A stretch of DNA of 44,644 nucleotides from a virus. Its lineage: Duplodnaviria > Heunggongvirae > Uroviricota > Caudoviricetes. The stretch lies in IMG/VR virus record IMGVR_UViG_2568526230_000009, one strand, 5' to 3'. A program made the translations under genes and the position numbers. Position 1 is the stretch's first letter, and every line of letters begins with the position of its first letter. The notes under the pieces are model-generated. The model was given only the letters and a program-made list of their open reading frames with translations. It was not told where the DNA came from and searched no databases. This document shows, one piece after another, positions 11,516-31,318 of the stretch.

Positions 11516-11896
11516 TTAGTATTTTGAATACTCGCTGTTTTCGCTGGACGTGTGAGGCTCTAAAAAAATATTCGTGAGCCCTGTGCCATCAGGTTGAGGC
11601 TCTTTAACCACGTAATCGGTCCAGCCAGACCAGGTAACAGAGCCGTCAGGTTCGATGCTGCGCTGCTTTGGAACCTGGACGACGTCACGCGCAACAACGC
11701 CAGCGACGTCGTCCGAGAGCGCCGTCAGGCTCGTTACTGTACCGGTAATAAAACCAGCGTGAGGAACGTCAACGCGCGCGTAAGGCTCGTTGAAAATAGC
11801 GATAATGGGGTCGGTTTTACCGCGTAATTTAACGGGCCGTCCCCACTCACGGATCATCTCCTCGTCGCCGGCCCGGAGGTCATCGTAGTAGCTCAT
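11516..11896 (-). CDS. Head-tail joining protein (lambda FII-like, putative)
   Basis: 126 aa after the FI-like gene. Confidence 0.35.
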   Translation of the reverse strand: MSYYDDLRAGDEEMIREWGRPVKLRGKTDPIIAIFNEPYARVDVPHAGFITGTVTSLTALSDDVAGVVARDVVQVPKQRSIEPDGSVTWSGWTDYVVKEPQPDGTGLTNIFLEPHTSSENSEYSKY

Positions 11897-12312
11897 AGAG
11901 CGTAAACGTGATCAGCTGCGATAAGGTCTGCGACCTCCGGTGAATCAACAACAATTTCACGGCCTGCGGCAACAATCTCGCGAACGCGACGCCCGTTCAC
12001 GTAGTGATAAACGTCCAGCGTGTTACGCAACTTGACGCGGCGCGTAGCCGGTGCGAGCTCCTGCTCTTGTGACTGTGAAACGATAGCGCTCGCGATTGAT
12101 TGAGCGAGTTCATTATCGGTCCCGGACGCAGTATTCACTGTAATCTCGATGCCTCCCGCGTCACCGGATTGCTCGTTCAGAATATCGAGCTCTGACTCAG
12201 CGCCGGCAACGATTGATTCCAGTTCCGCAATAGTCCCGCTGCGCGGTAATTCGCGACCGAGCTGAGCGCTCAGATCGTCAATACGCGCCAGCAATTCTGT
12301 TTTTGTGCTCAT
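11893..12312 (-). CDS. DNA packaging protein (lambda FI-like)
   Basis: N-terminus MSTKTELLARIDDLSAQLGRELPRSGTIAELESIVAGAESELD resembles lambda FI as recalled. Confidence 0.45.
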   Translation of the reverse strand: MSTKTELLARIDDLSAQLGRELPRSGTIAELESIVAGAESELDILNEQSGDAGGIEITVNTASGTDNELAQSIASAIVSQSQEQELAPATRRVKLRNTLDVYHYVNGRRVREIVAAGREIVVDSPEVADLIAADHVYAL

Positions 12313-12346
12313 GTTGATTCCTTAACAAAAAAGAGCCTTTCGACTC

Positions 12347-13381
12347 TTACGCGATTTTTACGACAACGAACGCGTCGGCGTCCGTGAGGACCATTGCTGG
12401 CGCGGATTGCGTCATTGTTTGCGTCACTGCCGGATCACCGGTAGTGGTCCAGACTTTTGGATAGCGCGTCGCTTCGGAAATACCCTCTTTCAGCGCGTCT
12501 TCGTCCTGAATTGCGCCATAAGTGCGGAGCCCGCGGTTTTTTGTGTTGCCAAGGATCATCGTGTTATCCGGCATATAACGCGTTTCAGTGTCTGTTACCG
12601 GGTCGAGGTATTGCCCTTTGTAGACAAACAGCGCAGTGTCGCCGTAGTAGCCTTTAAAGCTGACAACGTCGCCCAGGTTTTTCAGCGCGACCTCGAGCTG
12701 GCTGTTTGAGCCACGGCGCGTATCCAGTGCCGTCCAGAATTTTTTAAAACGCTTCAACTGCTTCCAGGCTTTACCATCCATGATGATCACGTTAACCGCA
12801 CCGGAGGCGAGGTCCGCGTAGGATTCAATATCGTCGCTCGGGTCATACGTTTCCGCGTCCTGAGTCGACCAGGCTGTCGAACCGGACTGAGTGACGTTAT
12901 TCGTCGCGCTGCGGCTCATGTCGATCTCATAGGTCTCGATATTGCTGCCGGAAACAGTGTATTTACCGTACAGAACAGCCTGTACCGCCTGGAACTCTTA
13001 GAGCTGGCTGATGCTCAGTTCCTCATCAAGCAGGTTCTGCATGATGATTTTTGCACGACGTTCGACCGGCGTTTCCGGCTGGCCAATCTGCTCACCGGCT
13101 GCGCGCTTGATGCTCATATTCGGATTGATCGTGTGCTTGGGTTTCGTGTAACCCGGTTTGAAATGGTTCGTTGAATAGCCGCGAGTGCGGTCAACTTTGC
13201 CGGTGATCATCGGCGCGCAGTACACGGCCATGTTCACTTTTCCCGGGATTTTATCCAGAAAAACCTCTTCGCTCGTAAACGTGTAGGTCTCACGGAAAAA
13301 CAGCTTTAAAAACAACGGATTGAACTTAAATACCTGCTGTGTCGCGGTAATCAGTTCTGACGTAGTAAACGAATCGCTCAT
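12347..13381 (-). pseudogene. Major capsid protein (lambda gpE-like) interrupted by an in-frame TAA at 12998-13000
   Basis: Track ORFs 12998..13381 and 12347..12919 are in the same frame and together match the N- and C-terminal parts of lambda gpE as recalled; the stop sits where lambda has Glu. Confidence 0.7.
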
Positions 13382-13439
13382 TTATATATCCTGTTATAAA
13401 AAAACCGCCCGGAGGCGGCTTGTTTTGAGTTTTTTGCTA

Positions 13440-13769
13440 TCAGCCGACGCTGATCGGCGTACCCGCAAATGCTGATTTGCGTTTAGCTACGTCGGTAACC
13501 GTACCCCAGTTAATCGCCGTGTAACGGAACGAGCCTGATTTATAGTACGAGCAGTCTGCAGAACTGGAGCCAGTATTAACTGCGGTGGCAGTGAGGCCAA
13601 TAGCTTTACCGACTGAGCCGTCCCAAACCTTAAACGTCCCGACAGTAGCGTCGAGCATAATCGGTGTCAGCCGGGGTACGTTGATCCCGCCCTGAAAATG
13701 ACCGACGGTCGTGACAACAAGGTCAGGCCCAAGAATAAAATCGTCCGGGCTATACGTTTCTGTAGTCAT
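13440..13769 (-). CDS. Head decoration protein (lambda gpD-like)
   Basis: 109 aa; YKSGSFRY and KRKSAFAGTPISVG match lambda gpD motifs as recalled. Confidence 0.75.
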   Translation of the reverse strand: MTTETYSPDDFILGPDLVVTTVGHFQGGINVPRLTPIMLDATVGTFKVWDGSVGKAIGLTATAVNTGSSSADCSYYKSGSFRYTAINWGTVTDVAKRKSAFAGTPISVG

Positions 13770-15076
13770 TATTCATCCCCTAAAATTGAACGCCCTGCAG
13801 CAACCAGCATCGAGACGTTTGCGGTTGTTCCTGTTGCCGTAGTACTGCCAGCATCCTGAATAGTCGCTGGTGATTCAGTGCTCATTAGTGTATCGAGCGC
13901 CGTTTCTGTCCGCGCCTGCGCCGTTTTAGGTGCTGCAGCGAGGACTACCTGCGCCTGCCCGACCGTCATCCCGGGGACGCCAGCGAGCGCTTTTGCCTGC
14001 GCCTCGCGCCCAACAGCTTCGGGACAATTGATGATGGCCATCACACGCGCCAGTTCGCTTGATGCGGCGTCCGCGCGAATCTGCTCCGTGTTAAACTCAA
14101 CCTGCGCGACAGTAGTCGTGGTCGCGGTTTGTTCTGTGGTCGTGGTCTCCGCCGTGGTTTCTGTACCAGACATAAAGCGCTCCATTTTTGGTTTCAGTGC
14201 GTCGGCCATCACTGCGATAGCGTCCGCGTAATTAACGAGTTGATCAGCGAGACCAGATTTAATCGCGTCCGCGCCGATAAATACTGCAGCTTCCGTGGCC
14301 AGCACCCTGGATTTTTTCAGCCCGGTATAATCCGAGACTTTTTGCGCGAACTGCTCGCGCGTGCTGTTAATACTCAGCTGGAATTCGTCGCGAACGTCGC
14401 CTGGCAGCTGGGAATACGGGTTCCCGTCAACTTTGTGCGCGCCGGCGTAAATCAGCGTCACGTCGACGCCAGCAATCTCCAGCGCTTTTTCGACGCAGCG
14501 GTGAGCCATCAGGACACCGATTGAACCAACTGTGCCTGTCTGCGTTATCAGCCGGCGCGAACACGCTGACGCCAGCAAATAGGCAGCGCTGCAGGCCGTA
14601 TCGCTGGCCAGCGCCCACACAGGTTTTTGCTCTCGCGCCCGGGCGATTAAATCAGCAGTATCAAACGCGCCGGCGACTTCACCGCCAGGGGAGTCAATAT
14701 CAAGCAGGACCCCTCTTACATCGGGATCAGAAATCGCCTGCTGCAGGCGTTTTGCGATTCCGTTGTAACCGCTCATCCCGCTAACTGGGTTGATATAACC
14801 CAATTTATGAACCAGCGTCCCGGTAACCGGCAGAACGGCTATACCACGCTCCACGCGATACGATTTCTGGCGTGTTCGCTCGCTGCTGTCCCACCCCATC
14901 GCGAGCGCGTTCATTTCGTCGCTGTTCATTACCTCTCCAGACGCTGTATCAATCAGTCGCCCGGTACCGAACCGGTCGCTCAGCGCCGAAAAAAATACCC
15001 GCGCGTAGGTGGGCTCCAGCAAAAGCGGTTGATTGAACGCCCTGGCGGCGAGGTGCGGAAAATTGTTCCACGGCAT
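13769..15076 (-). CDS. Head maturation protease / scaffold (lambda gpC-like, S49 family)
   Basis: 435 aa with SppA-like core and a Thr-rich linker; sits between portal and decoration genes. Confidence 0.7.
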   Translation of the reverse strand: MPWNNFPHLAARAFNQPLLLEPTYARVFFSALSDRFGTGRLIDTASGEVMNSDEMNALAMGWDSSERTRQKSYRVERGIAVLPVTGTLVHKLGYINPVSGMSGYNGIAKRLQQAISDPDVRGVLLDIDSPGGEVAGAFDTADLIARAREQKPVWALASDTACSAAYLLASACSRRLITQTGTVGSIGVLMAHRCVEKALEIAGVDVTLIYAGAHKVDGNPYSQLPGDVRDEFQLSINSTREQFAQKVSDYTGLKKSRVLATEAAVFIGADAIKSGLADQLVNYADAIAVMADALKPKMERFMSGTETTAETTTTEQTATTTTVAQVEFNTEQIRADAASSELARVMAIINCPEAVGREAQAKALAGVPGMTVGQAQVVLAAAPKTAQARTETALDTLMSTESPATIQDAGSTTATGTTANVSMLVAAGRSILGDE

Positions 15077-16650
15077 CAGTTACCTCCCCAGCCGTTATCG
15101 TTGGTATTTGAGGGGTGAGATACAGACCATGACGGTTCGCTCAGCCCCATTTCACGCCGGCGCTGAATTTCGTATTCCTGCTGCTCCATAACCTCCTCGT
15201 AATCCTGTCCCTGCAGCGCCAGTTCGTTCTGATACGTGCTGAGGCCAGTTGTGATGCGCATGGCGCTCTCCTGAACCTCTTTCAGCCCATCAATCGCCAT
15301 GCGACCAGCGCCGATCCAGAGCGCGTTCGTCCAGGAGTTCCGCGCCTCATAAAACGACCGGACAGCTGAGCGTGGCAGGGTGATAATTCCGCGTGCCAGC
15401 GCCTCTTCAAACCAGCAGCAGAACATCAGCGACGCCTGTCGCGCGGCGATAAAACGTCGACGCCCCATGAAAAATCGCCAGCTGACGTTAGCACTGGCCC
15501 GGGCGCTGGAGTAACTGACCTGGCTGTAGTCCCGGCTAAGTTCTTCGTATGACGCGCCAACGCCAGCTGCAACGTAACGCAGGAGTGATTTTTCCAGTGA
15601 ACTAAAACCAGCATCAGCATTCTGAGCGGTCTGTAAACTGAGTTTGTCGCCGGGATGCAGGTGGGGAACTTTCACACCACCGAGCTTGATATTTGCGCCG
15701 TTGTAGTACGTCACGTAACTCTGAATAAACGAATTCAGCGGGTTCGAGTCGATATCAGTACCCGCGCCGGCGATATATTCAAACGCCTGCTGGCTGTCGA
15801 GCTCTGATTCGATTGTCGCGGCATACATCGCCTTCACAATGGCGCTCTGCAGTTGTGTTTGCTGCAGTGTGTCGAGCATTTTCAGGCGCTCCATGACGCT
15901 GTAAAAAATATTGTCCCCGCGGGTCTGTCCGTCCTCGAGCGGCTCGAATATGTGGATGAATGCGTGTCTGCCGCTGCTGAGCTGTGCTGGGATACGCCGG
16001 CATTTACCGACTCCGCCGAGAGGGTAAGTATCCTCGGCTATCCAGTACCCGACCGCGGCCCCGTTTTTATCGATATCAACACCGGCGCGGCGAAATTGAG
16101 TGTCAGCTGCGTAACCCGGATTTCGAATCCGTTTCGGTGAGACCATTTTGAATCGCGTCCGAAAAACGCTGCCGGCACTACTCTCCCAGACTGGTTGTAC
16201 GCAGGTTTCACCGTTGAAAGCGTGAGTAGCCACGCCCTCGCGGATCATCATTGTGAACGTCCGTTTCCGCTCGATATCAATCGTGCAGTGAGGGTCCTCG
16301 GCGTATTCAGTCCACGCTACCTCGACGTCACGCGCCAGCGCCCTGGCGTCCTCGCGAGATATGCCGAGGTAACGCCAGTTAGGGCGATAACTCAACTTAA
16401 ACAGATTGCCGACGATATGATCCTGGTGCAGCTGCACGGCGTTCGACGCGACGCCGTTATTGCGAACGAGATCGTCTGCTCGCGCGTTACCGCGATAAAA
16501 ATTCGGCAACAGTGCTGCGTCGGCGCTCTGCTGTGGTGCGTTCCAGTCAATCAGCTGGCCACCGAAACCGGGACCGCCGCCGTTATACCCCGCGTAACGG
16601 CGTAGTGGCGTTTTACCGTCAGGCCCGAGCAGCTGCTGCGGAGCAGTCAT
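15076..16650 (-). CDS. Portal protein (lambda gpB-like)
   Basis: 524 aa directly downstream of terminase/W. Confidence 0.75.
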   Translation of the reverse strand: MTAPQQLLGPDGKTPLRRYAGYNGGGPGFGGQLIDWNAPQQSADAALLPNFYRGNARADDLVRNNGVASNAVQLHQDHIVGNLFKLSYRPNWRYLGISREDARALARDVEVAWTEYAEDPHCTIDIERKRTFTMMIREGVATHAFNGETCVQPVWESSAGSVFRTRFKMVSPKRIRNPGYAADTQFRRAGVDIDKNGAAVGYWIAEDTYPLGGVGKCRRIPAQLSSGRHAFIHIFEPLEDGQTRGDNIFYSVMERLKMLDTLQQTQLQSAIVKAMYAATIESELDSQQAFEYIAGAGTDIDSNPLNSFIQSYVTYYNGANIKLGGVKVPHLHPGDKLSLQTAQNADAGFSSLEKSLLRYVAAGVGASYEELSRDYSQVSYSSARASANVSWRFFMGRRRFIAARQASLMFCCWFEEALARGIITLPRSAVRSFYEARNSWTNALWIGAGRMAIDGLKEVQESAMRITTGLSTYQNELALQGQDYEEVMEQQEYEIQRRREMGLSEPSWSVSHPSNTNDNGWGGN

Positions 16651-31232: not shown

Positions 31233-31318
31233 ATGTAACTGTTTTATATGGGCGGTACTTTGACAGAGGTATTCGGTCTCGTGCTGGTCGTGGTCAAATA
31301 CCTTTTTAAGCGCAAATA
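31233..31318 (+). repeat. Direct repeat copy 2 (orphan 3-prime gene end)
   Basis: Would encode MGGTLTEVFGLVLVVVKYLFKRK* but lacks a gene body or SD. Confidence 0.8.

Follow-up and report, generated by a model that had tools for sequence, protein, structure and literature searches.

An in-frame ochre codon, probably a recent strain-private nonsense mutation, interrupts the lambda gpE-type major capsid gene of an Escherichia coli prophage

Introduction

In phage lambda, the genes for the portal, an S49-type protease, a gpD-like decoration protein, the major capsid protein gpE and the packaging protein FI form one neighborhood, and the same neighborhood is present in the E. coli prophage described here. 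The two differ in their tails, lambda having a siphovirus tail and this prophage a contractile (P2/Mu-like) one. Lambda E amber mutants, such as the Eam alleles of the lysogens used for in-vitro packaging, make no proheads and do not package DNA, with tails and lysis unaffected. With regard to the architecture of the capsid protein, the elements of the HK97 fold follow one another in the order N-arm, E-loop, spine helix, A-domain and remaining P-domain strands (PMC5701804).

The gpE-type gene of the prophage analyzed here carries an in-frame TAA. Below, we compare this gene with its relatives and weigh a real nonsense mutation against a sequence error, against selected loss of the head and against decoding of the stop.

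Results

Source and organization of the prophage

The window, by which we mean the whole stretch of 44,644 bases that was analyzed, is the exact reverse complement of positions 3982747-4027390 of NZ_CP019015.1, the chromosome of E. coli Ecol_AZ162, a human clinical isolate from Boston. At 100% identity, its capsid region matches NZ_CP019015.1 only, and about 420 further complete E. coli genomes, many of them labelled O25b:H4 or ST131, match at 99.9%. The GenBank 'phage' records that match the prophage (n=4) turned out to be in-silico PHASTER predictions from draft genomes, not isolated phages, and the EC958 genome paper held no usable information on this prophage.

The prophage extends over window positions 1-43640 (roughly 44 kb) and is a mosaic, in which a lambda-type head module is joined to a contractile tail of the P2/Mu type. 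The head module is arranged in the order terminase, gpW, portal, S49 protease, decoration protein, capsid and FI, and the contractile-tail module comprises baseplate V/W/J/I, sheath, tube and tail protein X. Annotated as intact are the genes for terminase, gpW, portal, S49 protease, decoration protein, FI, baseplate, sheath, tube, tail fibre, holins, a putative endolysin and Q. The genes that surround the capsid gene and those that mark the integration site are the following:

11893..12312, minus strand: DNA-packaging protein FI gene, intact, next downstream of the capsid gene (ORF list, annotation)
13440..13769, minus strand: head decoration protein gene (gpD-like), intact, directly upstream of the capsid gene (annotation; WP_000206292.1, identical in relatives)
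13769-15076, minus strand: S49 family peptidase gene, intact (ORF list, annotation)
15076-16650, minus strand: portal protein gene, intact (ORF list, annotation)
42496-43512: tyrosine integrase gene, adjoining the host tRNA-Leu gene
43643-43729: host tRNA-Leu gene, beside the integration site

The capsid gene is bracketed on the minus strand by two terminator-like, GC-rich hairpins with T-runs. One lies between the decoration and capsid genes (13402-13421; RNA fold -15.1 kcal/mol, z -2.15) and the other right at the capsid stop codon (12331-12348). Within a Q-antiterminated late operon, such bracketing hairpins may stabilise the transcript or set the stoichiometry of its products.

Between the early and the Q/late regions, we also found a unit of ~1.9 kb (window 23255-25163) that combines an ISEc53 (ISL3-like) transposase gene with a ClbS/DfsB gene. 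The unit is inverted relative to AR_0081 in Ecol_AZ162 and in about 10 other genomes (AVS0578, MNCRE44 and others) and, judging by the ends of their matches, it is inverted relative to most other relatives as well. Because the ClbS probe matches 253 plasmid places, ClbS may be a passenger gene that is carried along by the IS. Additionally, the secondary BLAST hits contained an imperfect 78-base direct repeat (89.7% identity) in the early/accessory region, with its two copies at 27816-27893 and 31238-31315.

The capsid gene and its internal stop

The capsid gene and the parts into which the stop divides it are as follows:

12347..13381, minus strand: major capsid protein gene of the lambda gpE / Phage_cap_E type (ORFs, translation, Pfam, 7VI9 alignment, RefSeq)
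12998..13000, minus strand: in-frame ochre codon TAA at codon 128, ancestral GAA (Glu) (sequence, alleles of relatives)
13001..13381, minus strand: 127 codons still translated (Pfam positions 1-112 of 329; aligned to lambda gpE 3-126)
12347..12997, minus strand: 216 codons and the terminal stop, downstream of the premature TAA (ORFs, translation, Pfam)

Translation of 12347-13381 (minus strand) in a single frame yields 345 codons, composed of 127 sense codons, TAA, 216 sense codons and a terminal TAA. The initial annotation had described two capsid ORFs that share one frame of 345 codons and a truncation at residue 127, and both statements are borne out by this translation. The upstream ORF (12998..13381, minus strand; 127 aa) is terminated by the TAA at 12998-13000, which reads 'tta' on the plus strand and stands in the context CUC UAA G. 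The ORF at 12347..12919 (190 aa) is no more than the C-terminal stretch read from its first internal ATG onward.

Both halves score above the curated cut-off of the PF03864 (Phage_cap_E) profile, which is 22.9 bits. The N-terminal match runs over residues 6-121 and profile positions 1-112 (E 7e-18, 65.2 bits), and the 216 aa of the C-terminal half align with positions 120-328 of 329 (E 1.7e-35, 123.1 bits), such that the two collinear matches together take in positions 1-328 of 329. The alignment with lambda gpE (PDB 7VI9) is likewise collinear over the full length, with residues 4-344 set against 3-341 (E 4.9e-127), and it places the stop in the column of Glu127 of gpE, in agreement with the Glu that had been claimed for lambda at this site. 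The profile match, the collinear homology and the position in the head module all assign the gene to the gpE family, and an uninterrupted frame is what it lacks; judged from its sequence, this copy is a pseudogene of the family and not a functional member. The stop as such is already known, since the public annotation (PGAP) flags a pseudogene: RefSeq locus BE965_RS21975 in NZ_CP019015.1 is entered as 'major capsid protein', pseudo, with the remark 'internal stop'.

The TAA allele among related prophages

Over the 7151 bases around the gene, the only difference between the window and SK1144 is at window 13000, where A is found here and C in SK1144; AVS0578 and MNCRE44 also have C at this position. 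The change from C to A on the plus strand is a G-to-T transversion on the coding strand and converts GAA (Glu128) to TAA. The intact allele of SK1144 and other relatives (WP_001283997.1, 344 aa) is identical over the 1035-nt gene except at window 13000. The origin of the stop from GAA, as had been proposed from the letters of the window, is upheld by this comparison, given that one base separates the gene from the intact allele of about 419 other complete genomes.

Among the 425 complete E. coli genomes that were matched by a 61-base probe with the codon at its center, the TAA allele was present in one, the source strain itself; 419 genomes had one mismatch to the probe and 5 were more distant. 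Viral and metagenome contigs were retrieved by means of a pattern with N at the variable base, and GAA (C at that base) was present in 7 of the 7 (3 viral and 4 metagenome). Three diverged alleles, with nucleotide identities of 95.5, 93.1 and 91.6%, have an intact frame of 344 codons in which codon 128 is GAA, and their dN/dS against the gene of the window is 0.031, 0.018 and 0.055, respectively. The comparison with related prophage alleles, which had been suggested as a check on the stop, found GAA in every other copy examined and TAA as a singleton.

The capsid gene family is evidently under strong purifying selection. Because the TAA occurs in the source strain only, because GAA is found in the contigs and in the diverged alleles, and because dN/dS is low, the stop is best understood as a recent, strain-private nonsense substitution and not as recoding. 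Several marks of a recently formed nonsense pseudogene are present, namely an orthologue that differs at the stop only, a sense codon as the ancestral state and purifying selection elsewhere.

Real mutation or consensus error

Taking this evidence together with the quality of the assembly, we hold it to be very probable that the C to A at window 13000 is a real mutation, which turned Glu128 (GAA) into an ochre TAA in Ecol_AZ162 only. The alternative that survives best, although it is unlikely, is that base calling or consensus building went wrong at this site of the deposited assembly, in which case the strain would truly have GAA and an intact capsid gene. A singleton allele (1/425 complete genomes and 0/7 viral/metagenome contigs) is what a random error would look like, and two more singleton substitutions lie within the same 44.6 kb. 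However, PacBio consensus errors are mostly homopolymer indels, and window 13000 is outside any homopolymer or repeat. When the window and two 50-kb flanks (144.6 kb) were compared with the two closest genomes, AVS0578 and MNCRE44, no private indel of Ecol_AZ162 was observed in the 144.6 kb; MNCRE44 shows indels in the same comparison.

The private substitutions of Ecol_AZ162 in the window number three (13000, nonsense; 24564, missense; 32868, synonymous), and the 100 kb of flanks contribute one private SNP, along with three clustered differences that lie in a copy of IS1397. Divergence of this order, a few private SNPs per 50 kb, is normal between isolates, which speaks against an error, and the singleton at 24564 is present in both ISEc53/ClbS copies of the genome, which fits a real variant better. 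As the same assembly has no private indels and few private substitutions in 144.6 kb, an error appears less likely than a real mutation. By these measures the assembly looks clean, with no sign of poor consensus quality.

The sequencing procedure points in the same direction. In the strain series, PacBio assemblies were produced with HGAP3, after which Illumina reads of the same DNA were mapped and mismatches were inspected by hand (PMC5517641). The main text of that paper does not name Ecol_AZ162, and that its method applies to this strain is our assumption; if the strain belongs to the project, the stated check of PacBio assemblies against Illumina reads argues against a consensus error.

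A generally error-prone assembly was considered separately and rejected, on the basis of 144.6 kb without private indels and with few private SNPs, a sample too small to address an enrichment of SNPs in the prophage.

The remaining private variants have characteristics of their own. At window 24564, C is replaced by A, which alters an amino acid of the ClbS/DfsB protein (WP_022645066.1 in this strain, WP_000115885.1 in relatives), and this variant was detected only in Ecol_AZ162 among 674 genomes. The second copy of the unit that carries it is at record positions 1062738-1062798, and the presence of the variant in both copies suggests gene conversion, or transposition after the mutation arose. 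The synonymous substitution at window 32868 (G here, A in 424 other genomes) lies in a small hypothetical early gene. In the flank NZ_CP019015.1 3932747-3982746, the clustered private differences are at reverse-complement positions 48914, 48926 and 48991, inside the IS1397 copy and about 1.0-1.1 kb from the low-coordinate end of the flank, with transposase WP_099156422.1 here and WP_099156434.1 in both relatives. Such clustering seems to fit gene conversion between copies of the element better than it fits point mutation.

Discussion

Predicted product and consequences

With the stop taken as a real nonsense mutation, translation would end after residue 127. The alignment with gpE, read against the canonical order of HK97 elements, indicates that residue 128 should lie in the spine-helix segment. 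By the same placement, the 127 translated codons should cover the N-arm, the E-loop and part of the spine helix, and the 216 codons downstream, which translation from the start codon of the gene would not reach, would encode what remains of the spine helix together with the A-domain and the strands of the P-domain. The predicted product would be devoid of the A-domain and of most of the P-domain, and for this reason the 127-residue fragment would be unable to build capsomers. Each T=7 head needs roughly 400 copies of the protein, presumably more than basal read-through of UAA could provide. Little polarity on the downstream genes is expected, since late transcription is under a Q-type antiterminator.

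Upon induction, the prophage would still be expected to excise, and, with Q and the genes for holin, endolysin and tail intact, replication, tail assembly and lysis of the cell would be expected as well. Proheads, packaged DNA and infectious particles would not be formed; by analogy with lambda E nonsense mutants, the prophage should make neither heads nor infectious particles. The capsid stop is probably an early and neutral step of prophage decay. As the ISEc53 element is located inside the prophage in all close relatives, the prophage may have been non-viable before the capsid mutation.

Selected loss of the head

A real mutation could also have been selected, if a headless prophage that keeps its contractile tail and lysis genes served as a tailocin-like killing device or brought some other benefit to the host. 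According to the annotation, the genes for tail sheath, tube, baseplate, tail fibre, holin and endolysin are intact without exception, and in lambda-like and P2-like phages the tails assemble independently of the heads, so that free tails would be the expected product. The allele, however, is found in a single isolate with no sign of spread, the head module shows no wider loss, and a single neutral hit explains the data without selection, all of which leaves a selected origin highly improbable. In particular, it is very unlikely that the nonsense mutation represents the first captured step from a contractile-tailed prophage to a headless, tailocin-like producer that benefits its ST131-type host, because the allele was seen only once and intact genes for the portal, protease, decoration protein and terminase are all retained.

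Read-through, recoding and re-initiation

Least credible of all is that the stop is decoded, by programmed read-through or recoding or by an ochre-suppressor tRNA, with full-length capsid protein still being made: the open frame does run on for 216 conserved codons past the TAA, as it would after any recent nonsense mutation, but the TAA is missing from 424 other genomes, 7 contigs and 3 diverged alleles whereas programmed recoding sites are conserved, no Rfam family was matched at or near the stop, and none of the tRNAs in the window is a suppressor, these being host tRNAs for Gly(GCC), Cys(GCA) and Leu (anticodon UAA, reads UUA/UUG) whose genes adjoin the integration site. In E. coli, termination at UAA is efficient when the next base is G. 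Recoding and read-through were rejected, the stop being unconserved and the window having neither a cis RNA signal at the site nor an element-borne suppressor tRNA.

Re-initiation further downstream is unlikely and was also rejected. The first internal ATG, at 12917-12919 (Met154), is preceded by no convincing Shine-Dalgarno sequence (GAGAUCGAC AUG), and the resulting 190-residue fragment would be without the N-arm, the E-loop and the spine helix and hence of no use.

Implications for annotation

A nonsense mutation private to Ecol_AZ162, which is the reading we prefer, implies that this copy of the prophage ought to be left out of counts of intact prophages and of sources of transducing or infectious particles, even though software for finding prophages would probably rate it complete. 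The locus would serve as an example of the earliest prophage decay, in which one private hit in an essential virion gene can be set against about 420 near-identical GAA copies. Beyond correct annotation its significance is small; this would be an ordinary gene-killing mutation, of a kind that prophage decay produces every day.

Comparison with known systems

Compared with lambda gpE (PDB 7VI9; PF03864), the capsid gene has the same collinear full length, and Glu is conserved at the mutated column; the difference is that the copy in this prophage is interrupted by TAA at codon 128. The lambda E amber mutants resemble it in carrying a nonsense codon within a lambda-type head module, in the gene for the major capsid protein. 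They are amber (TAG) laboratory alleles kept in suppressor hosts, whereas here a clinical isolate carries an ochre (TAA) codon of spontaneous origin, for which the phenotype is predicted. The intact allele belongs to the same prophage in ST131-type E. coli (for example SK1144, JJ1887, MNCRE44 and AVS0578), which occupies the same site beside tRNA-Leu with the same gene order and has GAA (Glu128) in the place of the TAA of Ecol_AZ162. With decaying enterobacterial prophages in general, this prophage shares a point mutation in an essential virion gene and an internal IS element, but it would stand at a very early stage of that process, having no deletions and with every other virion gene annotated as intact.
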